A stretch of DNA of 63,956 nt, filler included, from Octopus bimaculoides (Eukaryota): assembly GCF_001194135.2 (NCBI RefSeq). It is 8 parts of 8 records of this genome, joined end to end, with 100 filler letters (N's around TTAATTAATTAA, not from the genome) between each part and the next. Parts side by side here need not be neighbours in the genome. Positions count along the whole stretch, not along the records: positions 15,909 to 30,074 come from NC_069007.1; positions 30,175 to 40,305 come from NC_068990.1; positions 40,406 to 49,911 come from NC_069009.1; 5 more parts are not named here. One strand, 5' to 3'. Below, in pieces: positions 37 through 41,429 of this stretch. Positions within the stretch are counted from its first letter, which is position 1; each line of letters starts with the position of its first letter. The notes below the pieces were generated by a model that was not told the DNA's origin, ran no database searches, and worked only from the letters and a program-made list of their open reading frames with translations. The translations under genes were made by a program, and so were the position numbers.

Positions 37-103
37 ATTTATACACTCATGTATAAATATAAATATATATATATATGTTTGTGTGTGTGTGTGATTTTCA
101 TTG

Positions 104-5463: not shown

Positions 5464-5505
<42 letters not shown>

Positions 5506-17850: not shown

Positions 17851-18030
17851 GGGAGAATTCACAAAAAAACAACAGACGAAGACAGGTGGTGTTGAAAACA
17901 AATAGATGTATTAGCATAACGCTCAGGAATAGAGAAAGTCTTTGACGTTTCGAGCCTACGCTCTTCTACAGAAAGAAACAAGGAGAGAAAAAAATGTGTG
18001 TAGTGGTCAGCGATCTATCATGACGAAATA
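17851..18030 (-). mobile_element. Family E PLE-derived repeat
   Basis: Contains the hammerhead at 17939-17976 and the conserved block (+ strand gggagaattcac..gacgaagacaggtggtgt..atgtattag..acgctcagga) shared with 40501, 38408, 52185 and 104. Confidence 0.8.
17939..17976 (-). ncRNA. Minimal type-I hammerhead ribozyme motif, core variant CUGUAGA
   Basis: Minus strand UCUUU-CUGUAGA-A-GAGC-GUAG-GCUC-GAAAC-GUC-AAAGA: 5-bp stem I, 4-bp stem II, loopless palindromic stem III (ACGU), GUC triplet, A6 replaced by U. Confidence 0.7.
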
Positions 18031-19076
18031 TTTAGTTACATATTTAGGAGCTGCTTATAAATTTACTTATTGAATTTATTTACCAATACTGTTGTACAGT
18101 AGGGAAAATGTGCTTGAAAGTTGTGGTTTCTTTGGTATGTTTGTTCCCAAACAACACTTATTTTAGTGCTGTTGACACTGCCAGACTGAATGATATTGTT
18201 CAGGTGTCGAAACCATAATGATGATGGAGGTATGTTAGATTGTTGGTATGGCTGTTTTTGTATATGTGGATTAGTATTATAACACATCCTTTTGATGGGC
18301 TTCTTTCAGTTTCTATCTACCAAATCCACTAATAAGGCTTGCCCTAGGTGTCACGTAGTGAGAGTGAACTCAGAACTATGTGGTTGGGAAGCAAATTTCT
18401 TACCACACAGCAACACCTGTACCTAAGTGTAGGTTTGTAAAAGCACTCTGGGAAAATGTGTTTCAGTGGCTCAAAACATGTTAAACTATGTAAAACATTA
18501 GTGAAAAGGAAAGCTGACTGTTTCTTGCAGAAATATATCTAATATATTTACTGCAATAAATATATCTAAAGCAGCATCCCCCCCCCCACCTAATTTACTA
18601 ATTTTTCTTGTGTGGACTCCTAAAAATTTTATATGGACCTGATCTGACCCATGCATGGTAAAATGGATATTAAAGGATTTCCGAATGTAAATAGGAAATG
18701 AAACGTATTTGGTAATGTTGCAGATCGAGCTGATGCTGGTGTGTAAAAGTCCACGTGTGTGTTAAAATAAATGACTCCAATGCGTACTGCATTGCAAGTG
18801 GTGAAAATAAATAAAGTTCACAAAGGTTGGTATAAAACACATCATAATTTATTCAAACTAATAAGTACTGGTAAGTACTGTGTGTGTGTATGTAAAACCA
18901 TTAAATGGTGTAGTGAGACAGGAAGATATTGCATGACTTACTGCATATATTTTAATCGTTTATGCAAAGCAGACTGAAAACTGATATTCATGAACTGAGT
19001 TGTGCAGTCATCATCATCGTTTTCCATGCTGGCATGGGTTGGATAGTTCAACTGGGGTCTGGGAAGCCAGAAGGCA

Positions 19077-19167
19077 GTGTAGTTATCTATTGCTCTCTCT
19101 CTGTCTCAATGTAGTTACCTATTGCTCTCTCTCTCTCAATGTAGTTACCTATTGCTCTCTCTCTCTT

Positions 19168-19205
<38 letters not shown>

Positions 19206-19222
19206 AATGTAGTTACCTATTG
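19077..19222 (+). repeat. Minisatellite: (aa)tgtagttac/atctattg spacer alternating with (CT)n, four units
   Basis: The unit tgtagttacctattgctctctct recurs at about 19109, 19140 and 19209; a variant is at 19077. Confidence 0.8.
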
Positions 19223-20315
19223 NNNNNNNNNNCCTCCTCATCTCTATCCTCCCATCCTCTGTCTGCTTACCTATCTATCTTTATTTTCCCTCTCCTCACT
19301 GTCTGTCTACCTAGTTACCCCCCCCTCTCTCTCTCTCATTACCTGTCTTAGTTACCTATCTCCACCATTTTCACTTCTCTTTCTTCCTCTGTAATTAGTT
19401 ATCTCTCTGTCTCTTATGTCTTCTCTCTTTTTCTTTCTGTCTAGCTAGTCTTCATTTTAGCCATCACTGCCAAAGCCATACTGGAGCACTGCTTTCACCT
19501 CACTATCTATCCCCACCACCTCCACTCTCTCTTTTTCTCTCACTTTTTCTCTCTCTCTGTCTATTTATCTTCCTCTCTATCTCTTTCTTTCTCACACTAT
19601 CTCTATTTCTCTCTCCCCCTTTCTATCTCTTTATCCATTTTCTATTTCTATCTCTCTCCAGCTCTCTCTCTCTCTCTCTCTCTCTCTAACTCTTCTGCTC
19701 CAAAAATGGACCATCAAATATTTCTTCACTATAATATTAATTTTACAACCCACACTCAACACTAAGTCAAAACAACGCTTAAACTTTTAAAAAAAGGCAT
19801 TTTAGTTTGTACAAAACTCTTCAAGGCACCCAACAATAAAACCAGCCAAAAAGAAAAACAATATGAATAAATAATTACAAAAACCAAGAAAAATATCAAA
19901 GAAAAAGCAAACAAAGCNNNNNNNNNNCCAAAACCAAGAAAAATATCAAAGAAAAAGCAAACAAAGCCGCTTGCTGCCGAACTGGAAGTATTTTCGAGTA
20001 ACCTTGTCAAGCTCACATCAAAACAAAGTTTTGTTGAATTTGGCTGCTAAGAAGTCCTTAGAAATCATGTGATTTCGTAAGGTTCTGTTATTTTTAAATT
20101 CCTGACTTTTGTTTGACAGATGCTTGTCTTTGAATAGATCAGAAAATGGCATCGAGTAGGGAAGGCATTGGCCGGTAGATTGCTATACATTGGTACATCG
20201 GTTAGTGGACAGTTATTTAAAGCTGATTATCAATAGTCACACTGTCACATTTCAAAAACATCTAGTTCCAGAAACAGAAACAGAAGTGCTTTCAAAACAA
20301 GATTTCAGTTTCACT

Positions 20316-20346
20316 ATGAATTATTTTATACTTTCTACATTTCTGG
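20316..20346 (+). CDS. Unrecognised spliced gene, first coding segment (MNYFILSTFL, phase 1)
   Basis: actATG (A at -3) and strong donor CTGG|GTGAGT. Upstream acceptor cctgacttttgtttgacag at 20119 with a branch-like ctgac suggests a UTR-containing exon from 20120. Confidence 0.5.
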
Positions 20347-21189
20347 GTGAGTAAAATGTTTTTATATTCTTCTTATATTATAATTCCATATTAATAAGTT
20401 CGTTTGTTGTACTAATGACTTCCAATTTATAGAATTGATTTGCTTCTTGCAAGAGATCGCATGAATATGACTAAAGATAACTAATCTACAAACTCTATTA
20501 ATTCTATCAAATATAGGTGTATGTATGGCTGTGTGGTTGAGGAACTTGCTTCCCAACCGTGTTGTCTTGAGTTCAATCCCACCATGCAGCACTTTGGACA
20601 AGTGTCTTTTACTGTAGCCTCAGGCTGATCAAAACCTTATGAGTGGATTTGGTAGCTGGAAACTCAAGGAAGCTTGTTGTATGTGTGTGTTATTGTCCAC
20701 TACCATTTGATAACTGATGTTGGTTTGTTTATGACCATGTAACTTAACAGTTCAGCAAAAGAGACTGGTGGAAGTATCAGGCTTTAAAAAAAATTAGTAC
20801 TGGGGTTGTTGTGTTCAACTGAACCCTTCAAACTGGTACTTCAGCATGGCTGCCATCCAATGATTGAAACCAGTAACAGACAAAATATAAAAACATACGA
20901 AACTTTGTTTAACATCAATCCTTAATTATTTTGAAACCATACAAACTGAAATCATTAACTACATAAACATGCAATGAACCCCAACTCCTCCAAACTATTG
21001 GCCAAAGGCAGCGACCTGACAGAATCGTTAGCACACTGGACATGCTGCTGAGCATTTTGTCCATCCTTACATTCTGATTTCAAATTCCACTGAGTCATCT
21101 TTCCCTTTCATCCACTCAGGGCCGTTGAAATAGGTACCAGTGAAGCCTTAAGCTCATTGTGGAAAGGATTATTATTATTATTATCTTAA

Positions 21190-21433
21190 CCCATTAGTGC
21201 CCAAATTTTTTTTTCATCTAATTTATTACCAAAAATCTTTTTTTATACAACTTATACTAATTATATTAAAAAAATATATACTAAATATATTAAAAAAAAA
21301 ATTTATTACAATATTTGAAAGACAATCCAGTCTTGATGACTAACTAAAGATATCTCAGAAAAATACAGGTGTTGCAGAAATATGATGGTTTATCCTTCTG
21401 GTCCTAAAAAAAAGGACCATAAGCGCTAATGGG
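21190..21433. mobile_element. piggyBac-like MITE
   Basis: TTAA|CCCATTAGTGC ... GCGCTAATGGG|TTAA: TTAA target duplication (21186-89, 21434-37), CCC ends, 10/11 TIR match, AT-rich interior. Confidence 0.85.
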
Positions 21434-21726
21434 TTAATATGGTTTATTATGAGAAACTGTATTGTCTGGTCTGTGAGGGTGGAGCAGGTGGTAACACACT
21501 GAGCAATAATTGTTTTTGTTGGTTAATAACTGAGCTCAAATCCTGCCTGTCTGCTGCGTTTTATCCCTCCATTGGTCTGCAGGAAATATTTACTGTAACC
21601 AGATGGCTACACCAGATTGGAGCCTGGTGTAGCCATCTGGTTCACCAGTCCTCAGTCAAATCGTCCAACCCATGCTAGCATGGAAAGCGGACATTAAATG
21701 ATGATGATGATGATGACGAGTTCCAT

Positions 21727-21867
21727 AGACTGTTGTTGTTGGCACTCCGTCGCTTATGACGACAAGGGTTCCAGTTGATCCGATCAACTGAACAGCCTGC
21801 TCGTGAAATTAACGTGCAAGTGGCTGAACACTCCACAGATACGTGTACCCTTAATGTAGTTCTCGGG
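21727..21867 (-). mobile_element. SINE family A, 3' fragment
   Basis: Reverse complement of the last ~140 nt of the copies at 24011 and 27685. Confidence 0.9.
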
Positions 21868-22320
21868 TACAATTTCTATTATGCAATAGAAATTTATACA
21901 GGATCAAGGGCTCACCAACTGACAGGGTCAAGGGATCACTAACTGACTGGGGTACACCAAAACCTTTGTAACCTCGAGGGCAGAGAACAACAACAGGAAT
22001 TTTTGCTTAGTATACAAAATTATAATAATTTTTATGATAATGTCGTTATGTTGATGCTTAGTCCAATCTCATCAGTAAGTAATAGTGTAGGGTTATGATC
22101 AGGAAAATATCCAACCATGGTCATCCCACCTTTTTTCTGATACATTGTATATATATATGTATATATTTGTATATATTACTTTATCCATCCAATATTTTTT
22201 CCAAAATGCCTCATACACTCACACACACACATATATGTATGTGCATGTGTATATATGTGTGTGCATATATGTGTGTATACATGTGTATATGTATGTGTGT
22301 GTGTATTTATATATGCATAA

Positions 22321-22354
<34 letters not shown>

Positions 22355-22363
22355 GAAGACCCG

Positions 22364-22755
22364 GCAAGCCAAGTAAGATCGTTGCCAGTGCCCCTGGACT
22401 GGTTCTTGTGCGGGTGGCACATGAGATGCACCATTTTGAGCGTGGCCGTTGCCAGTACCGCCTGACTGGCTCCCGTAGGATTTTCGAGCGAGATCGTTGC
22501 CAGTGCCCCTGGACTGGCTTGTGCGGGTGGCACATAAAAGACACCATTTCGAGCGTGGCCGTTTTCGTGCGGGTGACACGAAAAAGCACCCACTTCACTC
22601 TCTGAGTGGTTGGCGTTAGGAAGGGCATCCAACTGTAGAAACTCTGCCAAATTAGACTGGAGTCTGGTGTTGCCATCCAGTTTCACCAGTCCTCAGTCAA
22701 ATCGTCCAACCCATGCTAGCATGGAAAGCGGACGTTAAACGATGATGATGATGAT
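22364..22755 (+). mobile_element. Repeat family D: internal ~115-bp tandem subunits plus a LINE-like tail ending in (GAT)n
   Basis: agatcgttgccagtgcccctggactgg, gtgcgggtggcacat and gagcgtggccgtt each occur twice. The tail gaagggcatcca..catgctagcatggaaagcggacgttaaacgatgat recurs at about 21590-21715 and 48530-48710, with a reversed subunit array at about 40930-41300. Confidence 0.8.
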
Positions 22756-24010
22756 ATATGTGTGTGTGTGTGTGTGCCAGAAAGAAGATAGAATTCCAGA
22801 ATTAAAGAATAAGAACTGTGGTTGATTTGTTTGATTAAACCCTTCAGTACAATGCCCCAGCATGGCCACAGTCCATTGACTGAAACAAAAAGATAGAAGA
22901 TAAAGCAGTCTGGGATTGTGAGACATGTCATGAATAAAACAGCATGGACAATTCTTTGAAAAAAGTGCCATGTTTGTAGATTTGGTTCACTCAAGAATAC
23001 AAGAATTCGATGTCAGCAGACAAGTAAAAAGAAATTTTTGGTTGGAACAGTGGAGGGGACTGGCATGTCAAAGAATAGGACCAATGTTTCATCTGCATGT
23101 TGTATAAGAATCCTTTCTGCTTTTGGCACAAGGCCTGGATTTTTGTGGGGAGGGGCACAATTGATCACAGTACTTGACAGGTGCTTAATTTATCAACCTC
23201 GAAAGAATTAAAGACAAAGTCGACCTCGGCAGAATTTGAACTCAGAATGTAAAGACAGGAAAAATACTGGTAAGTATTTTGCACGGCATGCTAACAATTC
23301 TGTCCGGTCGCCGCCTTGCATGTTGTTTAAGAATAAGAGTGGCGCAAAGGTGTCATCTGCCAGGAATAGGGAATCCCCAACAAATGGTGGATGCTGTTAC
23401 AGCGCATTCCCCCCATAATACTACTCTCTTGGTGCTTGGATAGGTGCATTTGTTTCTCAACCTCATGTTTTCAGGTTCAGTCCCACCTTGGGCAAGTATC
23501 TTCTTATACTTTGGCCCTGAGTGGATTTGGTAAATGAAACCAAAAGAAGCTTGTTGCATGTGTATGTGTGTGTGTGTGAGCATGCGTGTATTTGTGTCTG
23601 TTAAGAGACCACATGAAAGTTGTAAATAAGTGCCACTGTCATACAAGCAGCATCTTTCATCTCCAATATTCTACAAGATATGTCTGGCCATGGAAACAGG
23701 TTAGGGTTGGCAACAGGAAAGGCATCTGGCTGCATTATCTTTCTCGATAATCTCCATCCAATCCATGCAAGCACAAAAAGTAGATGTTAAAACGATGATG
23801 ATGCAGACGGCAAATCCAGCAGTTGCATTAAGGAGGAGGAGGTGGTGGTGAAGGCAATGCCAGGGTTTGGGGGTTACATGCCTGGAAAGATGGTGAGATG
23901 AAGTGGAGTAGTTACATACGTCGGGTTAACAGTATCATGAACAGTACAGCGTGTTGAGAGATCTTCAAGAAAGTCATTCTTCCAATGTACCAAGGGTCAT
24001 TTAGATTAGA

Positions 24011-24400
24011 GTGGAGGCGCAATGGCCCAGTGGTTAAAGCAGCGGACTCGCGGTAATAGGATCGCGGTTTCGATTCCCAGACCAGGCGTTGTGAGTGTTT
24101 ATTGAGCGAAAACACCAAAAGCCCCATGAGGCTCCGGCAGGGGATGGTGGCGAACCCTGTTGTACTCTTTCACCACAACTTTCTCTCAGTCTTACTTCCT
24201 GTTTCTGTTGTGCCTGTAATTCAAAGGGGTCAGCCTTGTCACACTCTGTGTCACGCTGAATATCCCCGAGAACTACGTTAAGGGTACACGTGTCTGTGGA
24301 GTGCTCAGCCACTTGCACGTTAATTTCACGAGCAGGCTGTTCCGTTGATCGAATCAACCGGAACCCTCGACGTCGTAAGCGACGGAGTGCCAACAACAAC
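24011..24400 (+). mobile_element. Full-length tRNA-derived SINE family A
   Basis: A box tggcccagtggtt, B box ggtttcgattcc, 3' hairpin cgtcg-taag-cgacg, (CAA)n tail. Approximate TSD catttagattag / catttagactag. Confidence 0.92.
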
Positions 24401-25530
24401 ATTTAGACTAGTCATGGGTTCTTCAAAATGACGATGACCTAAGATGTATCACAAAGAATAACCAAAGAATTCACCAAAAACAAGAAGCATGTTCCAGAAT
24501 GACATGCATATTCTTCAGATTTAAATCTAGTAGAAAACTTATGGAAATGTGTTGCCATGGTTATTCAACAAAACAACCATCGTCTTTGTTTTAATGTCCA
24601 CTTTTCCATGCTTGCATGGGTCAGATGGAATTTGGTGAGGTATATTTTCTGTGGCTAGGTAGATGCACTTCCTGTCACCAATCCTCACTTGTTGCCATCA
24701 CTAGACATGTTTTCACAGAAGATTGACAACAAGGGATACTGTTGCTTGTAACAGTGCTGGATTAACCCATTAAACAAAGATTGGAAACATTAACCCATTA
24801 AACAAAACAAGCACGTGTTTAGCACATCAGGGGTGGGGGGGGCACCACAGAAATGAAAATGGTTTACAGCACAAAAGAAATCACTTTAAACTTGTTAAAA
24901 TATTCTGAATACTAAAGGGTTAAGCAAATATGGTGTGATTTGGAAAGAGATTAAGCTGCTATTCTTGGCCGATCAAAAGCTTTGCTTGTCACTTGGTTAA
25001 TTCCTTCCATCTGACACTGAATGGCAATATGATCCTCTGTTGTTGTTTTTGGTTTTTACCTTTTATGTTGTTTCAGTCATTTGACTGCGGCCATGCTGGG
25101 GCACTGCCTTGAAAGGTTGAGCAAATCAACCCCAGGGCTTTTTTTTTAAGCCTAGTACTTATTCTACATGGTCAATTTTGCTGAATTGCTAAGTTATGGG
25201 GACATAAACACACCAACAATGGTTGTCAAGTGGTTGTGGGAGGGACAANNNNNNNNNNNNNNNNNNNNNNNNNNNNNNNNNNNNNNNNNNNNNNNNNNNN
25301 NNNNNNNNNNNNNNNNNNNNNNNNNNNNNNNNNNNNNNNNNNNNNNNNAAGGTAAGTTGCAATTAACGTCGTTTCTAATGTTTTAATTAAAAGCCTAATC
25401 TTTTATAGCATTATAACATACCTATTCATCTATTGCACACTCACACACACACACACGTACACACACACACACAATACTGTATATTCGTATATATTGGTAG
25501 GTTAACAATTATTATTTCTTCCTTTTTCAG

Positions 25531-25593
25531 ACTTGTTTTCTGCAGCAGCGACTGTCCATAGTCCTGGGATGTTTGAGCGAGAACATTCTGACG
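25531..25593 (+). CDS. Same gene, 63-nt exon ((D)LFSAAATVHSPGMFEREHSD, phase 1-1)
   Basis: Acceptor tttcttcctttttcag, donor GACG|GTAAAT; open frame and phase compatible with both neighbours. Confidence 0.65.
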
Positions 25594-25668
25594 GTAAATT
25601 ATGATAAATATCAATTTCAAGTTTTTAATTAACACACCAAATTACATTCATGTTGCTAATTGTCATTT

Positions 25669-25705
<37 letters not shown>

Positions 25706-25713
25706 ACACAAAG

Positions 25714-25746
<33 letters not shown>

Positions 25747-25979
25747 CATACATAGATACACAGGTACCTATATACCTGTATCTATGTACATATTTTTCCC
25801 TGCATGTATGCATGAATGCATGTATACACGCATGCCTCTATGTATGTATGCATGTATGTATGCATGTATGTATGTATATATGTATATCAATGTACGTTTG
25901 CAAGTATATTGTTATGTATACCCCTGAAATTCATACAGGAATGCTTTATATATATAATTTTTTGCTTTATTTCTTGCAG

Positions 25980-26042
25980 AATCCTCCTCTGCAGAGACCA
26001 GTTCTTATGAACCTCATCTTGCCATCCTACCTTTCACCGGAA
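25980..26042 (+). CDS. Same gene, 63-nt exon ((E)SSSAETSSYEPHLAILPFTG, phase 1-1)
   Basis: Acceptor tttgctttatttcttgcag, donor GGAA|GTAAGT; GC-rich island in AT-rich intron-like DNA. Confidence 0.7.
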
Positions 26043-26285
26043 GTAAGTCATACTCTAGCATTTCTAATTTTTCATTAAACATTTTAGCAGATTCTATTGT
26101 CCTAAATAATTTCTAGTGGATTATACACACACACACACACACACACATCGATAGCTCAGTGAAACATTAACAACCCATGCATAATTACTTTTCTCAATAT
26201 GAATATTCCATGTTTGATTTGTGTCCGTTTCTCTTGTTTATGTCAAATTATATTCATTGAGTTTTGTTTTTCGGTCAATTTGCAG

Positions 26286-26371
26286 CTCGTTTTTCCGATG
26301 CCGAAGAAATTCCCCGTGGTCCGTATTATGAACCTCTTGTACTGACTGATATTTTCTTTGAAAACCACTCG
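26286..26371 (+). CDS. Same gene, exon ((T)RFSDAEEIPRGPYYEPLVLTDIFFENHS, phase 1-0); alternative donor at 26414
   Basis: Acceptor ggtcaatttgcag. Donor TCG|GTATAC keeps the downstream exons open. Alternative AATG|GTAACA (phase 1) gives an early stop in the 32345 exon. Confidence 0.6.
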
Positions 26372-27684
26372 GTATACGTTCATCTCGCCGAATTCTTCGT
26401 GTTTGCTTTGAATGGTAACATAATCTTGAATGTTGCCATGTATATAAATATAGATGAATAATAGGTAAGCAATGAGTTAAATACTTTGATAAATTATTTA
26501 ACTGTTCTGCGCCTTATTTTAACTGATTTGCGACATCGATTACTTATTTATGCATACATACCTACACAAACACATAATTGTAATGTCTCACATTGACAGG
26601 ATAATTTTATTTAAAGCATTTTTTATTTAGATGAGTATATGTATTTATTATTGGTTTTATTAAAGTGATTGATGTTTGAGTTGAGGTAGCTAAAACACAC
26701 ACACACATATATATAATTTCTCCATTTTCTTTTTCCAGACAATTGAAGACACATGACCACGTGGCATTGAAATAGACAAAGAAAAGTGCCGTATCTCAAT
26801 ACACCAAAGAATTTAAACAACATTCTAACGATTCTGAGAATACAACAACTCTAAAGCATAAAGAACCCGCGCCGCGTTAGCGTTGGGTGCCCAAGTATGC
26901 AGAACCCCACCTTATTTTGTTAAAGTTGAAAAACACATTTCGTAAATCCAAAAAGGTGATGGTGTGAAATGATCCTGCGAAAAAATGTTAATAAATACAA
27001 TTATCTGTAACATCCTTCATTTTGAATAAAATAAATTAAAATGATATTTGTTTGGACTTCATTTTTTTTGTTTTGATTTTCGCTGATAGAATGATGATAA
27101 TATTTGTAATGGGCGTCGAGCTGGCAGAAACGTTAGCAAACCGGGCGAAATGCTTAGTGGTATTTCGTCTGCCGTTACGTTCTGAGTTCAAATTCCGCCG
27201 AGGTCGACTTTGCCTTTCATCCTTTCGCGGTCGATTAAATAAGTACCAGTTAAGCACTAGGGGTCGATATAATCGACTTAGTCCCTTTGTCTGTCCTTGC
27301 TTGTCCCCTCTATGTTTAACCTCCTGTGGGCAATAAAGAAATAGATAATATTTGTAATGAAAACTTCATTGTGAACAGAAATTGAAATACAGTTTTGATA
27401 TAATGTCTATCAATTGTTTGTTTGTGTTCGAGGATTTGTATCTCTGGGCGTGGGTCCTGGTTGAGCATGCTCCTTTCGGAAGACAAACAAACGTATGCTC
27501 ATTGAGGTAGAACAATCGTTAATTTTAGCTTTCGCATAATAGATAAATTAGGAGTAAACACCGGCTGGACTGGTAATGTCATTCAACTTATCTTGGCTTC
27601 GGCGCACCTTAAGAATACAGGATGGTTTCAAATCAAGCAGCTTCACAGAATATAGCAGTATACTGCTATATAGGTATCCAGGTC

Positions 27685-28080
27685 TGTGGAGGCGCAATGG
27701 CCCAGTGGTTCGGGCAGCGGACGCGCGGTCATAGGATCGCGGTTTCGATTCCCAGACCGGGCGTTGTGAGTGTTTATTGAGCGAAAACACCTAAAGCTCC
27801 ACGAGGCTCCGGCAGGGGATGGTGGCGAACCCTGCTGTACTCTTTCACCACATCTTTCTCTCACTCTTACTTCCTGTTTCTGTTGTGCCTGTAATTCAAA
27901 GGGTCAGCCTTGTCACACTGTGTCACACTGTGTCACGCTGAATATCCCCGAGAACTACGTTAAAGGTACACGTGTCTGTGGAGTGCTCAGCCATTTTGCA
28001 CGTTAATTTCACGAGCAGGCTGTTCCATTGATCGGATCAACTGGAACCCTTGACGTCGTAAGCGACGGAGTGCCAACAAC
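27685..28080 (+). mobile_element. Full-length SINE family A with a perfect 13-bp TSD
   Basis: AGGTATCCAGGTC at 27672-27684 and 28081-28093; near-identical to the 24011 copy. Confidence 0.95.
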
Positions 28081-28339
28081 AGGTATCCAGGTCATATGAC
28101 CCGGAAGTGAGCAACCACTCTTAGAGTGGAAAATATGAAACACAACTATGAAACATTATGCCATTTTGGGCATCCACATATATATCCGAGTTTCGGCTTT
28201 TGGAAATTTCATCCTTGAGCCTCTCCAGTGTTGACCACCCAGTAAAAATTCAAGCCCGTCACGTTATATTCCGTTTGTGTACTGGTTTTGTTTTGCGCCA
28301 AAAACACAGCACAGTGTTTGAATGTTTTGTCCATAAATA

Positions 28340-28963
28340 TTTTTGCACCATGTGCCTAATAGTCGGAGGTACTGAGATAGAAAAGGCGAGCAGCTATATG
28401 TATCTCGGTCAAGAAGTGACTATGAGGCGAGAGATGGGGAATGGGTTCTCGCGAGAGGAAAGAGCAGGATGGAGAGTATTCAATTCGGTGAAGGATGTAT
28501 CGAAGGCAAGGCAACTCGCGCCAATCTCTTCAGCAGCACAGTCAGTCTTGCCTGCAATGTGAGACTTGGACCTCGACGAAGAGAGAACAACATCTGCTTG
28601 CAGCGCAGAGAGCCATGGAAAGATCGATATTGGAAAGAACGCTGAGAGATCACATTCCGAAACGAACCGATCAGGAACAGAACTGGAATGAAGGACGTCG
28701 TCACAGAATATCACCACGCGAAGCTACGATAGGCCGGTCATGTCGCAGGGTCCAAAGACGATCGATGAACTCGTGTATACATATCGAGTGGTACCCGTGC
28801 GAACGGAAGAGACCGCTCGGAAGACCTCCAATGATAATTTCAGAAAAATGTTTGGGACAACGTGGCGGAGAATGGCGAGAGCACGAGAGGAATGGAACGA
28901 ATGCTGTGGCCAACGGAGCCGACTCGGCACCAGACAGCCTGGCCGATCCAGGTCAGCCGGCTA

Positions 28964-28964: not shown

Positions 28965-29001
<37 letters not shown>

Positions 29002-30411: not shown

Positions 30412-30450
30412 GAAATGCCCCAGAGCCAACAGCATCCTTCATTGATACGA
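30412..30450 (+). CDS. Same gene, 39-nt exon (EMPQSQQHPSLIR, phase 0-0)
   Basis: Acceptor ttgtcttttcactctcttcag, donor ACGA|GTAAGT. Confidence 0.65.
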
Positions 30451-31213
30451 GTAAGTATTTATCAAATTGTTCTTTTCTACTCTAGGAACAAGGCCTGAAA
30501 TTTGGGGGGAGGTGGGGAGGGGCAGTCTATTAGATCAATGGTACTTAATTTGTCGACCCCGAAAGATGAAAGACAAAATCAACCTTGGCGGTTTTTGAAC
30601 TCAGAACATAAAGACAGTCAAAATACCGCTAAGCATTTCGCCCAGCGTGCTAATGTTTGTGGCAGCGCCACCTCAAGTATTTATCAAATTATTGTTGTAA
30701 TGCTGGAGTTTCATTAGAATGACACTTTTTGACTGTGAAGAAAGTTGTGTATTTTGGTCCCTTTTGAGTTTTGATTATTTATCACAAATGCTTTGCAAGC
30801 CATCTGTCTATATGTCTCTGTCTTATCTGCCTGTCCATCTATCTTTCTACTTCTCTATCTGTCTGTCTAAAATAAGAAACCCTGTTTAATTCTTCTCATT
30901 TGTAGTTTGTTGAGTTTAAAATGCTTTATTTACTTGGTTTCTCAGCTTTAGATTAATTGATATCAGTTAAATTCGTTTACATCCACGTATGTGTGACATG
31001 TACTAAAACATTTAATATACAGGGACCAATAAAATAATGCTTTCTGTTATAGGTACAGGGCATAATAATACCTGACTAAATATAAACCCATAAAACACTT
31101 GTAGGCAATACTATATGGTCATTGCCCAAAGACTAAAAGCAGTTATAAATTTATATATTTTTACTGATATCTGTAGTTCAACTTCAACCATGCTGAGACA
31201 CTACCTTCTAGAG

Positions 31214-31416
31214 CAGTGTTTCTCAACCTTTGTCTACTTGTGGATCCGTTTGTTTCCTGTTTTACTCAGCTGGGCCCCAATAGGAATTGTATAAAAAAGA
31301 ATTAAAATATTTTGTGTATTGTAAGAAGTGTAACCAATTTATTATACATTGATTTCAACAGCAAAGACCCTATATCAACCCCTAAGGACCATATGGATCC
31401 CATTTGAGAACCACTG
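31214..31416. mobile_element. hAT (Charlie-like) MITE
   Basis: TIRs CAGTGTTTCTCAA / TTGAGAACCACTG; degenerate 8-bp TSD ttctagag / atctcgag. Confidence 0.8.
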
Positions 31417-32344
31417 ATCTCGAGTATAGTTGATTATATCAACATTGAAAGGATGAAAGGTAAAGATCAATGTGGGAAGAATATGAATGCAAAATGTATT
31501 GGAATGTAACCAAGTACCACAATATACATATATACATGTGTGGTTGTATGGTAAGTTTGCTTACCAACCATATGGTTCTGGGTTCAGTCCCATTGCATGG
31601 CATGATGGGCAAGTGCCGTATATTATAGACTCAGGCCAATCAAAACCTTATGAGTAGATTTTACTGACAGAAACTGAAAGAAGCCTGTCGTAAATGTGTG
31701 TGAGTTCTAGTCATTGGACTGCAACCATGCTGGGGCACTGCCTTAAATTTCTAGTCAAATGAACCAACCCTAGTCCTTATTTCTTTTTAAGCCTGCTGCT
31801 TGTTCTATCTGTCTTTTTGCCAAACTGTTAAGTTATGGGAGCACAAACACACCAATACCAGTTGTCAAGTGCTGGTCGGTGGGATAGACAGACACACATA
31901 AATATATATACTTATATATATTGAGTCATCCCATAAATAGTGTGGGATTTTTTATGCTGCTTTTATTTTTTAAAATGAACATAAACAAAGTTCTTCTTTG
32001 ATCTAAAATATACTTTCCTTCATTTTCTACAATGTTCTCCTTGCTCAATTTGCTAGGAATAGTAGCCAAAGCCCCCCTCAAATCACATCCTAAAGAATAT
32101 ATCATAACTGATAGTTAGATACCTCTGAAAAGTTGTGATGGCCACGGTTGGGATATCTCTGGGTATAGGTAGAATATAATCTGCAGTTAAAATATCTAAT
32201 GTCTATTGATTTTTGGAGTGGGTTGACTTTCATCAACAAAATCACTCTGTTATTACCAATATTATGTGTCACATCTTCAGTTCTTTAGCAAAAAATAATC
32301 CAACTAGCTATTCTGAAATCTCCTTTTTTCTCTTTTTTTTACAG

Positions 32345-32446
32345 AAAAACCGGAAAGGTTATTTCCAGTTTCTGCGTGATCAAGAATTGGAGGGTTTAAC
32401 TGATTTCATTTCACGGTTCATTGATTCTCGGTTAGATTTGCAAACA
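32345..32446 (+). CDS. Same gene, 102-nt exon (KNRKGYFQFLRDQELEGLTDFISRFIDSRLDLQT, phase 0-0)
   Basis: Long polypyrimidine tract plus acag acceptor, donor AACA|GTAAGT; only frame 0 is open. Confidence 0.7.
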
Positions 32447-35004
32447 GTAAGTTTCTCTTCTTAATAACTGCTCACAAACACCCTAATATATACTAGGGCA
32501 TCTGTTTGGGTCATCAATTAGTTAGTTCTTATTCAGACAGGTTGATTGGGGTGAAGGTGAGGACCATACTTTTCTCATACATTCTAATTTTGGCAGTTTC
32601 TTTGTTTGGATGTCATTTTTAACACCAACTACTTTACACAGTATACTGGCACCAGCACAAGAGAGGTTGTCATTTCCTCAACAGGCTAAAACTAATACCA
32701 AACACTTTACAGAGTGTATTGGCTGCTTTTGACGTGGCACCATCACCAATGCTTTTTACATCAATTTGTTGAATCAATAAATTTATTCCAGATAGAGTAA
32801 TGAAGGCAGAAGGTGAAATCTTTAGCAAAACCAGTATTTACAACTTGAGAGAAATTTTACCNNNNNNNNNNNNNNNNNNNNNNNNNNNNNNNNNNNNNNN
32901 NNNNNNNNNNNNNNNNNNNNNNNNNNNNNNNNNNNNNNNNNNNNNNNNNNNNNNNNNNNNNNNNNNNNNNNNNNNNNNNNNNNNNNNNNNNNNNNNNNNN
33001 NNNNNNNNNNNNNNNNNNNNNNNNNNNNNNNNNNNNNNNNNNNNNNNNNNNNNNNNNNNNNNNNNNNNNNNNNNNNNNNNNNNNNNNNNNNNNNNNNNNN
33101 NNNNNNNNNNNNNNNNNNNNNNNNNNNNNNNNNNNNNNNNNNNNNNNNNNNNNNNNNNNNNNNNNNNNNNNNNNNNNNNNNNNNNNNNNNNNNNNNNNNN
33201 NNNNNNNNNNNNNNNNNNNNNNNNNNNNNNNNNNNNNNNNNNNNNNNNNNNNNNNNNNNNNNNNNNNNNNNNNNNNNNNNNNNNNNNNNNNNNNNNNNNN
33301 NNNNNNNNNNNNNNNNNNNNNNNNNNNNNNNNNNNNNNNNNNNNNNNNNNNNNNNNNNNNNNNNNNNNNNNNNNNNNNNNNNNNNNNNNNNNNNNNNNNN
33401 NNNNNNNNNNNNNNNNNNNNNNNNNNNNNNNNNNNNNNNCATTGAGTTACCTGTGCATCAATATCTCTATTACCATACTTGAACACAATCAGTGGTCAAG
33501 TAATTTTCCTCTTCATAAAATGGGAGCTGCTGTCTGGGTACTTTGATGCAGGTAACTCATTGTGCCCAGCCTTTCACTTTGTGCCAGTCTAGCTGAGTAT
33601 CTAAGGTGCTCAGTGAATGGATGAGTGTATTTGATTGAAATAATTTGATGTAGATTAACAATAGAAATTGATGATTGTTGATGAAATGCATGAGTGTCTA
33701 TGTCCAAAGTAGGAGAGTACACAACCAACCAAAGAGGAAGGGCTCTATGTGGTTGTATGATTAACAGCTGCTNNNNNNNNNNNNNNNNNNNNNNNNNNNN
33801 NNNNNNNNNNNNNNNNNNNNNNNNNNNNNNNNNNNNNNNNNNNNNNNNNNNNNNNNNNNNNNNNNNNNNNNNNNNNNATCTTACCAACTTGAAAAATGGG
33901 AAGACTCATTAGTTACTTCTGTGAGACCTGTTCAGGCAGTTATAATCAAAGGCATTCATTTAAGTTTTTTTTTTTTTTTTTTTTTTCAGACTACCCAATA
34001 TCTAAGAGCGTTTGATTTTAGTGAGATTCAGTTGCTATTTCTAACAGGTCGCTTGACTCCATAGAGAAGGGCTCTCTAATTAATTTGTAATGCAATATAA
34101 TCTACCACTTTAAGTTGTAGTTGCACTATTTTACTGATCAGCAGTTCATTACTTAAGAGTACTGAATTCAATAGTTCAAGAGTTACCATAAGAAAATGGG
34201 AAGCTTGCAAACTATTCTGAGCAGGGTTTAAGTCTTGTTCACTTGGGTACTGCACAAAGTGATGATAAACACTTGAGCAATGAACCATGGAGGTCTGTCA
34301 AGTGTGGACTGGACTATCTTGCGAGCCGACAATCTTTTTGTATTCAAGAGCAGTAAATAATTGCCGTATATTTTGGAGTCCCCATCCCTTCAGTTCTATG
34401 AACACCACTTGCATGCAGCTGCTCTTGTTTAACCATTTTTCTGTGTCGAACGTTTCACAACACAGTGTAGTTTAATTAATGACTCCTAATTTATTTAAAA
34501 TCCTGTTTGAATTATGAGGGCCATTTAAAAAAAAAACACAAGCACAGCAGTGACTGGTGAAACTTGGCTATATAGAAGAATTGGGGGGACAACACGATAG
34601 CAATGATACAATGATGACAGGATTAGGGAGCTAGAAATAAGCATAGGGCTTGAAAAAGAGGAAATGTGAGGAAGAAATGTAGTTTGGTTTGTTGGGGTAA
34701 GGTGTGTGAAATTCTTTCTTTATTATTATTCCAGGTGGGTGGAACACACGACACTCTTTGATCTCTTTCACTGTAGATGGCTTCGCAACTCAGTGTAGTT
34801 TAATTAATGACTCCTAATTTATTTAAAACCTGTTTGAGTAATGAGTGCCATTTTCAAACACACATACACTGTTATATTGTTTTTTGTTTGTTTGTTTCTT
34901 TTTGGTATTTTATATAATTGTGTGTCTAAGAATTTTATGTATTGACTGACTTAGTCATCAACACTTTGTTCCATTGTATATGTAGCCATGCAAATACTGG
35001 ATGT

Positions 35005-35044
<40 letters not shown>

Positions 35045-35048
35045 ACAC

Positions 35049-35269
35049 ACAAGGTGTTGCTGAAAAGTTTCTGGCTTTAAAGAATATCATGAAAGGCCTC
35101 GATGGAGACCCAACCTTCCAAGATCTTTTTCAGGACTTAGGAAAACTGAGGGATTATTGCAATAAGTGTGCAAATCTGAGAGGTAAATATGTTAAATAAA
35201 ATGATAATTAACTGATCCGCTTGCATTTTCTTTTACCTAAAGTCAGGAATTTTTCAGCACCCGCTTTGT
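35049..35269. mobile_element. Mariner-derived MITE, diverged relative of 39367-39577
   Basis: tgctgaaaagtttctggct ... agtcaggaatttttcagcaccc TIRs; internal remnant of the transposase end (KLRDYCNKCANLRGKYVK). Confidence 0.8.
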
Positions 35270-36582
35270 TCATATACATCAATCGTAAATCATGATGAAT
35301 AATGGTAACCTTTTAAAACCCACATATACCATTAGATTCACTTTGCAGGCATTTCTAAGGTATCCTATGACTTGAACTGTGTTAGTGACCTGCTTGCATA
35401 TCTCTGACAAAATCTTTTGACACTATTATAGTCCACACAGTTCTAAGTGGGTAGCCTTGTGAAGGACAGGTGTTCCATCCAGGGTAAATGTTGGTCTGCC
35501 TGCTTAGGCATCATTCAAATGCTACAATAATACATGGAAACGCATTGTGACCAGCTGTGTATAACATCCAGTAGTCTAGTTGATGTTTGTATAAATATTT
35601 ACTCTTTTATACTTATTTATATGAACATGTGTGTATGTGTGAGTGTGCATAAAATCTAAAAATGTTATAAAATAAAATAACTGAAAATTTATCAAAACCA
35701 TTTTTTCCTTTTGTTTTTTTGATTCATGTGTGTTGGAGTGAGTGGAATCAGGGATGGTGTTGGGGAAGGTTACATCACTTTGGCATCTGTTTTGTAGTAG
35801 TAAGTAGTAAACTAATTATTTTATCTTGGGATTTTTTTTTTTTTTTAAAGATATTCAATATGGTGTTTTTTGCAAAATGTACATAAAAAAAATATATTAA
35901 AAGGAAAAAAAGAGAAAGAACCACCAGAAACAATTCATAGTTAAAGGCCGAATAACAGACATGATTTNNNNNNNNNNCGAATCGGAATTCAGAGAATGCT
36001 GGAATAGTATAGGAGATAGGTTCAGTCTACTCCATGTTTTGTTTCTCCTTATATCAAAACTATGTGAATATCTTCTTAATGTGTCAGAATATGTGGGTTT
36101 ACGTGTTTTTTTTTTTTTGTGTTGTTTATTGCATGTGATTGTGTGTGTGTGTGTGTATACAGAAAAGTTGTACAAATTATTCCAATTGTTGTTTTGTAAA
36201 TAACCATATTAACTTCAACCATTCCACCCTCGTATTCATTACTGCCAATCACTTTGTTTACATGTGTGTGTATGTGTGCATATGTGTTTATGTATGTATG
36301 TGTGTAAATAAGTATTGTTTATCTGTATATCAGCTTTATATATATATGTATATATGGACATTTGTAGTGTTGTTGTGTACATGTATCTCTCTCTCTCTCA
36401 CAAGGCCACTTGGGGCACCATCTTGAAGGGTTTAGTCAAAGATATTGACCCCAGTCCTTATTTTTTAAAATCCAGTCCTTATTCTATTGGCTTCTTTTGT
36501 TGAGCCATTAAGTTACAGACATAAACAAACCAACAGTGGTGAAAGTCAAACACGTGTGTGTGTGTATGTATGTATGTGTGTG

Positions 36583-36613
<31 letters not shown>

Positions 36614-37524
36614 GAGGGGCTTTTTTAAAGTTTTTCTTTACTAAATCTACTTATGAGGCTGTGGTCGGGGCTCATGGCTATAGTAGAGGACATTTGTTCA
36701 AGGTGTCACACAGTGGGACTGAACTGAAAACCATGTTATTGGGAAGCAAACCTCTTGCCACACCTGTACCTATAAATTTCAATTCAGTTTGGTTCCTATC
36801 AAATTACTGGTACCAGAGTTGAACCACCCTTGTTTGGGGTACCAAATTCCCTAAGGTTCACTTTTGGTTCCCCTCTCTAGAAATTGTACCACCCAATGAT
36901 AGTCCAACCTTCACTATTTTGTTGCTCTGAAACCACCAAACACCATCAGGGTTCTACTGCAGGAATCTCTACTAAGCATTTGTGCCCTACATAGTCCATA
37001 AAACCAAATGTAAAATATTATTCAAAATAATTAACAGTGTCAATAATGAGTTGTTGAGGGGGCTAATACATGGTTGCTTAACCTGCCAGAAATATCTGCT
37101 ATATCTCTCTCAAACACACTTTACTGGCTTAGGAGAGTATATGGTGGATAATGTAGTCCTACATGCATTGTGCCTGGGAAGAAAGATGTCTGGAACAATT
37201 GTAACTAGGCTTGACTTGGGGCTAAAAATCAACAATAACAACAAGGAGTCCTTTGCATGGTCACTCAACATGCTAGAAATAATAGCCTTATTCTTTAATC
37301 TCATTAATTTAACCCCTATGGATGCCAACTTGCCTGAGACCACCCTTGGTTCTGTGATAGATATTGCCTGTTTTAAAGTGATCTAAATTCAAAGCTTCTA
37401 TTAGTATTTCATGTTTTAAACAACAGCTTAATAATACTGTTCTGTAATTTTGAGATGGGGAATTCTGTAGATTATTTACATTGGTAGGATTTTGAGCCCA
37501 ATCCTGGGTTCTCATTCCTAAGTT

Positions 37525-37558
<34 letters not shown>

Positions 37559-37574
37559 TTTTTTTTTTTTTGCT

Positions 37575-37995
37575 GTTATGCAGTCCATATGACATCAGGA
37601 CGGCATTCAAGAGTAATAGAGCACTTCGCAAATATCGCCTTCAAGTAGAACCACCAGGAGAAGAGAATATGACCAAAGACTGCGTGTAGTCCATCCCATG
37701 CAGTTATGGTAGGTTATACAAAGGTGAAACATGCCACCCACTCAAAAAATGTAGAGGAACATTGTAAAGCTGTGACACGAGGTGTTGAAAAATCGGGTAT
37801 AGCTGATCATGTATGGAAAAGTGGAGACCACCTTCCCCTGTGGAATGAAATTAAAATAATAGAGAACGCCCCTGGAAAATACGAAAACTAAAAGAGGCAA
37901 CACATATGCTAGGGCACAATAACTTCCTAAGCAGACCCAGTGCAGATACGAGTAGAATATGGGAACCTGTATCAAGGAAGGATGCAAAAATATTA
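37575..37995 (+). mobile_element. Penelope-like element GIY-YIG endonuclease fragment
   Basis: DIRTAFKSNRALRK..KDCV*SIPCSYGRLYKGETCHPLK..EEHCKAVTRG..EKSGIADHVWKSGDHLPLWNEIKII..KIRKLKEA..LSRPS, matching the GIY-YIG layout of PLE ORFs. Confidence 0.85.
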
Positions 37996-38505
37996 GGTCT
38001 ATAAGCCCTAAAATTCACTCTATGACTTAGCGGTTCGGCAAAAAAACCGATAGAAAAGTACTAAGCTTACAAAGAATGAGTCCTGAGGTTGATTTGTTCG
38101 ATTAAAGGCGGTGCTTCAGCATGGTTGCAGGCAAATGACTGACACAAATAAACGAACGTGTGTGTGCGTATTTAAGAATCTGTGATGGTATTTATGTTTC
38201 TGTATTGATATTTATCCCCACCAACATTCGTTAATGTGTTAGCTTGTTTTCACCCCCGTTACTTAACAGTTCGACAAAAGACCGATAGAATAAGTATCAG
38301 ACTTTAAAAGAATAAGCACTGGTAAATTTGTTCCACTAAACCCTTTGAGGCGGCGCCTCAGCACGGCAAAAACATGACTGAAAGAAGTAACACACACACA
38401 CACACATGGAGAGAGAGAGTTCAATTTACAGAAAACAAAAGGCGAAGTCACGTGAAGGAGCAACAAACAGATGTATTAGTTTAACGATCTGGAAGAATGG
38501 AAAAG

Positions 38506-38543
38506 TCTTTGATGTTTCGAGCCTACGCTCTTCAGCAGAAAGG
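38506..38543 (-). ncRNA. Hammerhead motif (family E), core CUGCUGA, probably inactivated
   Basis: CCUUU-CUGCUGA-A-GAGC-GUAG-GCUC-GAAAC-AUC-AAAGA; a CpG-type G>A change breaks the stem III C-G pair. Lies in a family E copy at about 38408-38600. Confidence 0.6.
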
Positions 38544-38922
38544 ATTGAGAGGGAAAACAATGGGGAGAGAAATAAATGTGTAGGGATTAACGGTTTAACT
38601 TGATGCTATGTAAATGGAGTTACCAAATGATTTACAATTGTTTTATCATTATTCAGTACAACTAATCTTGCGTAATGCTGTAGCCATTCGGGCAACTATT
38701 GATTAATTTTTATGTGCTATGTAGGATTTCTTTATAACACATGTTGAACATATGTCTTGAAAATTTCTTTAAAAATATGCTGACTGATTCTGAAATCTAA
38801 ATAAATACGCAGCGAGTTGGGTGGTCTACATGATCACGTTTTTGTAAGAGAAACAAATGAATGCGAGAAACTGAGCAGATTAAGAAAATATTTGTATGAT
38901 ATACGGAATTTGCCATCTAAAT

Positions 38923-39261
38923 CAGTAGTTCTCAACGGCGCCATTTGAACCCTGTGGGGCCATAAAAGATTTTGGGGGAGTCCACGCAAGCAAGATATTA
39001 AATTGGGGACCCACAGTAATATATTACGGGTCCATGAAAAAATTTTGCTTTTGATGTGTTTATTGCAAGAAACAGATTTCTTTCTCTAATGTTTTACATA
39101 GTTCAACCTACACAAGTCAATGTGCGAAAAGCAAAATAGAAATTTTTAAAAATATATATATAATACTAGTTTTTAAACATCAAAGGGTTATGGAGGTCTA
39201 CTAGAATAAAATAGTAATGAAAGGGATCCATAGTTGAAAACAAAATGGTTGAGAGCCACTG
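38923..39261. mobile_element. hAT (Charlie-like) MITE
   Basis: TIRs CAGTAGTTCTCAAC / GTTGAGAGCCACTG; TSD atctaaat / atttaaaa (6/8). Confidence 0.82.
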
Positions 39262-39366
39262 ATTTAAAAGCTTGTATGGAAGTTCTTTGCAAAATACTCT
39301 AATTTGAACGAAATACAACCTAGAAAATATTGACCCAGTGAAAAACCTGTTCAGTCATGGAAAGTA

Positions 39367-39577
39367 CGAGAGGGTGCTGAAAAGTTCTTGGCTCTAAGGG
39401 TATCGTCTGGCTGGAGGCTCAACTTTCTGAGTTCTTTTTATAGGGCTTAGAAGAACTGAAGGACCGTTGCAATGAGTGTGTGAACCTGAGAGGGGAATAC
39501 GTTGAATAAAATCATAGTTAACTGATTCTCCTGTATTTTCTTGTATCCAAAGCCAGGAACTTTTCAGCACCCCCTCG
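39367..39577. mobile_element. Mariner-derived MITE with TA target duplication
   Basis: TA|CGAGAGGGTGCTGAAAAGTTCTTGGCT ... AGCCAGGAACTTTTCAGCACCCCCTCG|TA; internal GLEELKDRCNECVNLRGEYVE* is a mariner transposase C-terminus. Confidence 0.93.
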
Positions 39578-40234
39578 TATTATTTTGCCTGGGAGCAGTT
39601 GGCGATTGGTGATAGGAAGGACATCCAGCCGTAGAAAATCTTTCTCAACTAATTCTGTCTGACTCATGCAAGCTTGGAAACAGAGCATATTAAGCGATGA
39701 TGTCTAAATGAATGCGTTTCCAGGATTGATCTGTTGATCAATTCGAAACCGTATTGGTCGCAAAGTAAGCTTCTTAACCAAACAGCCATGCTTGCATCTA
39801 AAATGGAGAACACTAACATGGCAGTATTGGGATGGTATACAAATATATATGAAGCGAAAACATATTTTGGCAACCTATTTGACAGTCGGCTAAATATACA
39901 AGCTAATTACTTAATTTCTGTTCGTTTAATTATCCCTCATGTTGTATATTTATTCTATTCCGTTTGCTAATAAAAATGTATTAAGATTATGTAAATAAGT
40001 AAATGTTAATAGTAACAGAACATAAACATGCTTTTGTCTTTGTTACTTTTTATGGAGGGTGGGTGTATTTTTCGTTCATTTATTTAATTAGTTCGTATCA
40101 CGTGATATGTTAAGTCGTCATGTAAATGACAAGGGTCAGAGAACTGCCGTAAGACGATATTAGTTATATAAATAAATATATTTATAATACTTATATATGT
40201 GTGTGTTTATATACATAAGTATGTAAATATAAAT

Positions 40235-40305
<71 letters not shown>

Positions 40306-40422
40306 NNNNNNNNNNNNNNNNNNNNNNNNNNNNNNNNNNNNNNNNNNNNTTAATTAATTAANNNNNNNNNNNNNNNNNNNNNNNNNNNNNNNNNNNNNNN
40401 NNNNNCATGCATACATATATAC

Positions 40423-40495
<73 letters not shown>

Positions 40496-40593
40496 CATAT
40501 GGGAGAATTTACGAAAAAAAACAGCAGCAGATGAGGACAGGTGGTGTAGACAACAAAATTATGTATTAGTTTAATGCTTGGGAATACAGAAAG

Positions 40594-40630
40594 TCTTTAA
40601 CGTTTCGAGCTACGCTCTTCAACAGAAAGA
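40594..40630 (-). ncRNA. Hammerhead motif (family E), core CUGUUGA
   Basis: UCUUU-CUGUUGA-A-GAGC-GUA-GCUC-GAAAC-GUU-AAAGA; 5-bp stem I, palindromic ACGU stem III. Lies in a family E copy at about 40501-40650. Confidence 0.65.
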
Positions 40631-41429
40631 ATACAAAGAAAACAAGGAGTGTGTGTGTGTGTGTGTATGTATATACATATATACATTCATATACATATAT
40701 GTAGTAGGTATCTGTCAGCCTTGAGAGACCATGGATCTGTACCCTGAGAAATTTGCAGCTGGCGGTGGTGGTGGTAGTGCAGCATCTGCTGTAGTCTTAG
40801 GGGCCCACAGAGGAATGGCAGTAACGCATACAGCGACTGCATTTGAAAGGGATCTCTACCATCATTACTGGTTTCTCCTTCCATTATGTATGCTTTCTCC
40901 TTCCATTATGTATGCTTTCCACTCCAAGAGCATAGTGGGTGCTTTTACGTGCCACTGGCACGAAGGCCAGTCAGGTGGCACTGGCAACGGCCATGCTCAA
41001 AATGGTGTATTTTATGTGCCACCTCTACTAGAGCCACTCCAGCGGTACTGGCAATGATCTCACTTGAATGTTTTTTCCCATGCCACTGGCCCAAGTGCCA
41101 GGAAGGCGTTGCTGGTAACAATCACGCTCAAATGGTGCTATTTACGTGCCACCGGCACAGAAGCCAGGCAGCTGCTCTGGCAATGATCACGCTCGGATGG
41201 TGCTCTTAGCGCTCCACTGGTACAGGTGCCATCATGATTTCGAATTCACTTGCCCCAACAGGTTTTCGCAAGCCAAGTTCAGTGTTCAATGAAGGAGAGG
41301 TTGGCATGGGTGCCAGTCGTAGAATTTAGTTTGATTTCGATTCTTTTATCTTTTACCATTTTCAGTCATTTGACTGCAACCATACTGGAGCACTGCCAAA
41401 AGCAGAAATCCTATGATATTATTTAATCC

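Follow-up and report, generated by a model that had tools for sequence, protein, structure and literature searches.

Minimal hammerhead ribozymes are known from Penelope-like elements (PLEs). There they lie in the pseudo-long terminal repeat (pLTR), with a helix I of 4-5 bp, an unpaired base after A9, a G10.1-C11.1 pair and a palindromic, loopless helix III, in thousands of mostly solo copies that are predicted to act as dimers (PMC4209133). The window we analysed, 63,956 nucleotides of the Octopus bimaculoides genome (RefSeq assembly GCF_001194135.2) packed from eight joined stretches, contains three minus-strand motifs of this kind. PLE minimal hammerheads being already known, what differs here is position 6. 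The published core is CUGANGAH, with U3-A8 as a described exception, whereas in the octopus a whole lineage carries U at position 6 (U6) with no compensating change. Our best explanation, about evenly poised between right and wrong and read from sequence, is that all three motifs belong to 5'-truncated pLTRs from a Penelope-like retrotransposon in which U6 became fixed, and that its ribozyme is likely a slowed one that would cut only as a dimer or with the help of an element protein.

The closest described elements are the endonuclease-positive PLEs Neptune and Nematis (10.1101/2021.04.23.441226), which share with ours a reverse transcriptase (RT) followed, at the C-terminus, by an endonuclease (EN) of GIY-YIG type, the DKG motif, a CX4CXXC linker, a CCHH motif, the pLTR-ORF-pLTR layout (ORF, open reading frame) and (TA)n targets; the likeness is one of features. 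The picture of PLE end pieces given below is a known one (PMC4209133, 10.1101/2021.04.23.441226). A natural substitution at position 6 is known from phage Bcep176, whose hammerhead is A6C (PMC3088659, PMC7151607), but that is a single phage ribozyme with C6 and a measured, low, Mn2+-favoured activity, whereas U6 here stands in thousands of animal retroelement copies and is known from their sequence. The PAc Poseidon element of the green anole also has a PLE minimal hammerhead in its pLTR (PMC11167929); it differs in being protein-assisted in vitro and in overlapping the ORF start, where ours lies about 690 nt upstream, and the accessible text reports no variation at position 6. Metazoan non-LTR retrozymes are likewise short, non-coding, hammerhead-bearing, PLE-related repeats (10.64898/2026.07.22.740005). 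Those, however, form tandem arrays, whereas here tandems are rare and the units are truncations of a coding element; the retrozyme preprint searched with canonical and minimal type I models. We found no U6 core in the open-access literature or in the accessible part of supplement file 2 of PMC4209133, and the available main text of the octopus repeat annotation (PMC13282606) does not mention ribozymes.

U6 is the state of the family

The three copies, at 17.9, 38.5 and 40.6 kb, each sit on a different stretch of the pack, so the spacing between them is meaningless. They and their motifs are as follows.

17850..18028, minus strand: 5'-truncated pLTR copy of a Penelope-like element, from the U6 lineage with a GUAG loop; (TA)n(TG)n follows (by sequence comparison with loci L002 and L091)
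17939..17976, minus strand: minimal type I hammerhead motif; C3 at 17971, U6 at 17968, A7 at 17967, C17 at 17944 (numbered on the PLE minimal hammerhead consensus)
38418..38605, minus strand: an older copy of the pLTR, placed near the U6 lineage's base; 5' limit approximate (by tail comparison and trees)
38506..38543, minus strand: decayed hammerhead motif; C6 at 38535 and a G16.2-to-A change, both likely private (C6 unclustered on the tree; T>C rate)
40501..40649, minus strand: copy of the pLTR from the youngest U6 subfamily, with loop II GUA, flanked by (CA)n and (TA)n (tree clade, support 100/100)
40594..40630, minus strand: minimal hammerhead motif; C3 at 40625, U6 at 40622, with U7 and U17 (by motif reading)

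Read 5' to 3', the 17.9-kb motif (17976-17939) has core CUGUAGA, loop II GUAG and GAAAC-GU; the 38.5-kb motif (38543-38506) has CUGCUGA, GUAG and GAAAC-AU; and the 40.6-kb motif (40630-40594) has CUGUUGA, GUA and GAAAC-GU. These readings, the extra A after A9 and the GAGC/GCUC stem II in all three bear out the initial annotation, as does the absence of A6 from every one of them. The common UCUUU/AAAGA-type stem I that it described does not extend to the 38.5-kb copy, where stem I is CCUUU/AAAGA, 4 bp. Its suggestion of an obligate dimer stands, the loopless ACGU helix III fitting the known dimer-type minimal hammerheads. In the 17.9-kb motif the predicted cut falls between 17944 and 17943. An alternative register, giving the 38.5-kb copy a CUGAAGA core, was rejected; it breaks stem II and misfits the other copies. 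An Rfam scan of the window gave no hammerhead among the 150 of 228 matches listed, which came from microsatellite-driven miRNA and snoRNA models.

The genome-wide tally of position 6 that the initial annotation had called for, with an A6 consensus as the outcome that would count against it, returned a U6 consensus instead. We searched the genome by exact match (2.34 Gb, 145,327 contigs). A 22-mer spanning stem II from G8 to U16.1 with the GUAG loop has 3556 matches and its reversed control none, so the family lies far beyond chance. An intact CUG stands ahead of the match in 2725 copies, of which 2500 have U at position 6, 179 have C or G and 46 have A; the first 100 of the C/G class comprise 94 C and 6 G. 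The three-nucleotide-loop version has 5319 matches. Its first 100 include 85 U6 and 1 C6, all with GUA-type loops, together with 13 A6 and 1 G6, all with other loops. Because A6 with any loop of 3-6 nt totals only 882 genome-wide, which caps the A6 copies among these matches at 882, about 4,300 of the three-nucleotide-loop copies are U6.

The most direct evidence comes from copies gathered without looking at the head. We took the first 100 of 8079 matches to a 17-mer in the tail, all from the start of contig C1, and trimmed them to 92, seven being removed by an identity filter for an absent or truncated head and one (L291) by eye. Position 6 is U in 86, C in 4, G in 1 and A in 1. Since U6 prevails in copies chosen blind to it, U6 is the family state and not decay. 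Against the hammerhead core definition of C3 U4 G5 A6 N7 G8 A9, G12 A13 A14, A15.1-U16.1 and H17 (PMC3088659), every position in the 92-copy set matches other than A6. The features of PLE minimal hammerheads are present too: helix I, helix II with G10.1-C11.1, the extra base after A9 and the palindromic 15.1-16.1. The outer pair of stem I varies between families (C-G, G-C or A-U), and single copies have core damage such as G5A (8/92).

Beyond the assembly, we looked at three sequencing runs bearing the labels of other organisms and at one that may be RNA, all of uncertain species identity; at position 6 no letter other than U rose to 2%. Of the RNA runs, one labelled insect had 9 near-identical contigs of low depth from the youngest subfamily and one labelled termite-gut metagenome had 3 (compared with L227:1432-1580), and two further runs had none. 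These contigs are likely cross-contamination, and we did not use them as evidence.

A truncated end of a coding retroelement

The initial annotation took the repeat for a non-autonomous unit of about 180 nt. It is instead the 5'-truncated end, the pLTR, of a Penelope-like retrotransposon. The 17.9-kb unit is about 95% identical to that of L002/L091, which sits downstream of a GIY-YIG endonuclease remnant. In L002 this remnant is a decayed frame with the CX4CXXC linker, and L024 holds an RT fragment. Searches with the coding pieces of these two loci recovered a colinear order of RT, EN, 3' untranslated region (UTR) and unit. Of the 30 EN-selected loci 13 have a downstream unit, as do 8 of the 18 long loci; U6 is found in all 21 units, some of which have private damage elsewhere in the core. 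Two EN-selected loci have an upstream unit as well, L095 with C6 and L105 of the A6 sister type. One locus, L363, retains the whole layout: a unit at 3181-3366, an ORF region at about 3940-6665 and a second unit at 7094-7219, with U6 at both ends. The order is pLTR, a leader of about 570 nt, ORF, 3' UTR, pLTR, and the ORF starts about 690 nt downstream of the hammerhead motif.

The coding region has PLE-type RT motifs (MGTRMGPNY..YIDD and IIIKPADKG), and the RT stretch matches 186 database proteins at E<=1e-10, with up to 63% identity, many of them carrying PF00078; PF01541 occurs in 3 of the 120 RT homologues listed. Direct Pfam matches were weak and below cut-off (RVT_1 at E=0.066, GIY-YIG, PF01541, at E=0.004), a Pfam search of two other decayed coding pieces gave no match, and nor did a PDB search with the RT. 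The C-terminal GIY-YIG with its CCHH motif is visible in L002, L204 and L207, and the linker before the endonuclease (CX2-5CxxC) reads CSRPRCHTC in L002 and CSRPRCRTC in L207. Every coding copy seen is broken, with no intact ORF among the loci examined. Private substitutions are spread evenly over the codon positions (83/90/92 in 33 RT copies, 76/83/91 in 36 EN copies), whereas position 3 takes 17 of 19 shared ones in RT and 16 of 21 in EN; the coding sources were therefore under purifying selection.

Short copies have 5' ends that spread continuously into the 3' UTR, EN and RT, with a mode at 110-119 nt upstream of the tail anchor (22/100 copies), and a TA repeat follows the unit directly in 59/100. 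Head-to-tail tandems and target-site duplications, both proposed earlier as checks, gave little. Of 30 loci, 5 (2 places) have a same-strand neighbour, with microsatellite or a short spacer in between, and among 38 copies scanned the flanking matches are mostly microsatellite or shorter than 6 nt, with one candidate duplication, a 13-nt non-microsatellite direct repeat at L276. For the youngest, GUA-loop subfamily we saw no junction to RT or EN with queries drawn from older subfamilies, and that subfamily could be non-autonomous.

Several loci show further arrangements. The leader of L361 (about 3350-3940) and L363 (about 3370-3940) shares a segment found alone next to other units (L051, L227), and more of the dispersed repeats here may be pieces of the same PLE. 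Units are also fused directly to internal RT or EN (L095/L217, L126/L205, L024), suggesting template jumps or internally deleted derivatives. At L371 (114-410) two U6 units lie head to head in inverted orientation, both arms with a CAGUUGA core (U4A); related copies L253, L258 and L283 have this core too, possibly as a small subfamily.

Two places in the window stand outside the U6 lineage.

98..169, plus strand: short copy from an A6 sister family whose loop is UAU; its G5C change is likely private (compare L165, with a UAU loop and CUGACGA; tree)
52070..52267, plus strand: head of a different repeat family, with a canonical CUGAUGA core and ACAGCUGU as palindromic helix III, normally with its own 3' end; 5' limit approximate (by genome matches)
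52268..52355, plus strand: U6-family tail joined to the 52185 head, a one-off chimera (40 top-scoring places)

The copy at 104, with core CUCACGA, does keep A6 and lose G5 as first described, but it belongs to the sister family and not to the U6 family; its place on the tree is weakly supported, at the end of a long branch. The 3' block thought to be common to all copies survives in part. The tails are homologous and the U6-family tail is indeed present 3' of the 52185 ribozyme, but an end in GTGAATTC is found in only two of the five copies, those at 17.9 kb and 52185. The 40.6-kb tail ends in GTAAATTC and the 38.5-kb tail in GTAAATTG followed by (CT)n(TG)n, and the 104 copy keeps tail similarity over only about 60 nt (109-169).

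Exchangeable ribozyme heads, proposed from the 52185 join, we rejected. Of the 40 best-scoring places for 52170-52355, 39 align over no more than query 1-102 and the one that spans both head and tail is the window's own, and relatives of the head with visible flanks run into a different 3' end; the join is therefore a one-off chimera. Copies of the 52185-head family often form inverted pairs with a tail, like PLE ends. About 450 nt upstream of the 52185 motif, at 51729-51797 on the plus strand, is a further minimal hammerhead-like motif with a CUGAUGA core, an ACGCGU palindrome, an AUGUG/UACAU stem I and a long, weak stem II.

Descent and probable constraint after U6

Trees of the units separate the A6 families with three-nucleotide loops from the GUAG/GUA lineage. 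The split is weakly supported (89/74) and is a point where long branches come together, and the root is not an independent one. In the U6 lineage, median pairwise identity is 85% for the U7/A17 subfamily, 89% for C7/A17, 91% for G7/U17 and 95% for the GUA-loop group, whose nearest neighbours are 98% identical and whose clade, with support of 100/100, contains the 40.6-kb copy. The lineage kept amplifying through successive subfamilies after U6 was fixed. To this extent the pyrimidine-6 subfamily of the initial annotation is real; its C6 members are scattered private changes.

Surviving A6 subfamilies inside the lineage were considered and rejected, A6 labels being unclustered on the tree (359 of 500 shuffles as low, 43 rows), and a C6 subfamily fell in the same way (169 of 500, 43 rows). 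One basal A6 copy, L082, could be ancestral, at a poorly supported node. T>C at position 6 was seen in 2 of 32, within the range of 0-3 of 32 at other T columns. Because C6 is unclustered and its rate is like that of other T columns, the C6 of the 38.5-kb copy is likely private decay.

What happened to the rest of the head after U6 can be read from inherited changes, which we defined as columns where a clade of at least four copies shares a new base, on a tree of the 92 copies built from the non-head columns. None occurred in the 12 core columns, the 16 stem columns or position 6 itself. Of seven free positions three changed, namely position 7, position 17 and a loop II deletion, and within the head changes are restricted to these (p=0.005). 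Position 7 takes all four bases and position 17 A, U or C, a freedom that the hammerhead consensus permits (PMC3088659). The 3' tail changed in 26 of 74 columns, against 0 of 28 for core plus stems (Fisher p=7e-5); without the poly-T end the tail count is 16 of 53 (p=7e-4), and it falls to 13 of 53 (p=3e-3) once three weak events are dropped as well. We discounted the 5' pyrimidine tract, where 19 of 22 columns changed, as poorly alignable. With core and stems unchanged while the tail varied, the hammerhead fold likely stayed under selection after U6. Protein coding is excluded as the cause, because the motif lies so far upstream of the ORF in L363; the overlapping frame considered as a reason for the free position 7 (SVEERRLET, with position 7 as a third codon base, open across young units) also has a stop in the A17 subfamilies.

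Slowed ribozyme, scaffold or relic

How might an element prosper with such a ribozyme? The explanation we prefer, a slowed but working hammerhead, would run as follows. The fold would have been kept since it still works, and U6 would lower its rate of cleavage. Reverse transcription would start 3' of the pLTR and have to copy through the motif, so that head-bearing copies could arise only from uncut RNA; because every one of them must come from uncut RNA, slow cutting would be cheap or even useful. Residual cutting at the upstream pLTR would free the element RNA from a longer transcript, and would need either two motifs pairing through ACGU or an element protein. The lizard PLE hammerhead cuts only with protein, and its main insertion substrate is unprocessed RNA (PMC11167929). 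A bolder form of this explanation, which we offer tentatively and would not expect to hold, makes U6 a selected, rate-tuning substitution in a still-cleaving protein-assisted or dimeric hammerhead, with U6, G17, U4C and the A6 sisters as a natural allelic series leading to low, conditional activity, which would leave uncut RNA for reverse transcription.

A good deal weighs against efficient cleavage. Single mutants around CUGA show low activity (PMC9901934). A6C prefers Mn2+ (PMC7151607, PMC3088659), in Mg2+ cleaving more than 10,000-fold slower (PMC7151607), and the natural A6C retains low activity (PMC3088659); we found no activity measurement for A6U in the open-access literature. Dead hammerhead mutants leave PLE insertion in vitro unaffected (PMC11167929), and in the octopus the predicted cut site is the start of only 1 of 100 genomic copies. 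On folding, U4-G5-U6 can pair with A15-C15.2-G16.2 into an inactive rod in three of four U6 heads, and no head tested, U6 or A6, has the hammerhead dimer as its fold of lowest energy; monomer and dimer folding did not separate the two. In one A6 sister family, whose loop II is of UCC type, 20 of 26 copies have G17 (L378-L397, L151-L162; contigs C1 and C2). Having spread outside the H17 rule for the cleavage position (PMC12192606), this family implies that amplification in this clade needs no canonical core. The constraint test, for its part, is one short-sequence tree with few starred branches from one genomic region, and the tail has conserved blocks of its own.

Some of this would suit a ribozyme that is dead but retains its hammerhead-shaped fold, either for binding or recognition by the RT-endonuclease or as some other cis signal of the pLTR, and we regard that as a possible answer, if not a probable one. 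The amplified G17 family speaks for it, as do U4C (CCGAUGA) in 8 of 30 heads of the 52185-head family (L171-L199), the lizard PLE, which loses no insertion in vitro with catalytic mutants and has no RNA-seq reads ending at the cut site (PMC11167929), and the Naiad elements, which reach high copy number without a canonical hammerhead (10.1101/2021.04.23.441226). What it explains poorly is the pattern of constraint. G5, G8, G12, A13 and A14 have no inherited change, only the positions that a hammerhead leaves free vary, and across the U6 subfamilies position 17 is always A, U or C, a pattern that a mere hairpin-binding site would not predict. The same pattern argues against an unconstrained relic, in which the ribozyme would have died with U6 and its motif been carried along by an active retrotransposon. 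Dispensable cleavage in vitro (PMC11167929) and the neutral core decay of single copies such as the G5A changes would fit a relic, but 0 of 28 columns against 26 of 74, with all three varying head columns at free positions, make it very improbable.

At the other extreme U6 could be fully tolerated, cleaving as well as A6 with compensation from the element's protein, from local structure or from another metal ion. All subfamilies retained U6, from the oldest at 85% pairwise identity to the youngest at 95%, and A6C keeps good activity with Mn2+ (PMC7151607), but the mutational data we found, in the accessible parts of the sources cited, all show reduced activity at position 6 or in the CUGA motif, and no compensating head change accompanies U6; we consider this unlikely. 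As for a self-contained, non-autonomous unit with interchangeable heads, the mostly short copies with their 5'-end mode and the youngest subfamily's lack of a seen junction to RT or EN lend it something. Against it stand 5' ends that run on into the coding region, the full pLTR-ORF-pLTR copy at L363 and a 52185 head that normally has its own 3' end, and we give it very little credence.

Why PLEs retain hammerheads at all is not obvious, one PLE ribozyme being protein-dependent and its cleavage dispensable for insertion in vitro (PMC11167929). The octopus lineage is a natural experiment on this question, 'needs to cut' versus 'needs the fold': a normally invariant base was changed, more than 6,800 exact-match copies were made and the other constrained positions were kept, with the closely related A6 sisters as matched controls. 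Searches built on the canonical CUGANGA core would overlook this very abundant, hammerhead-shaped family entirely. If the rate-tuning idea is true, the Penelope families here would evolve their ribozymes toward low, conditional activity so that uncut RNA gets reverse transcribed.

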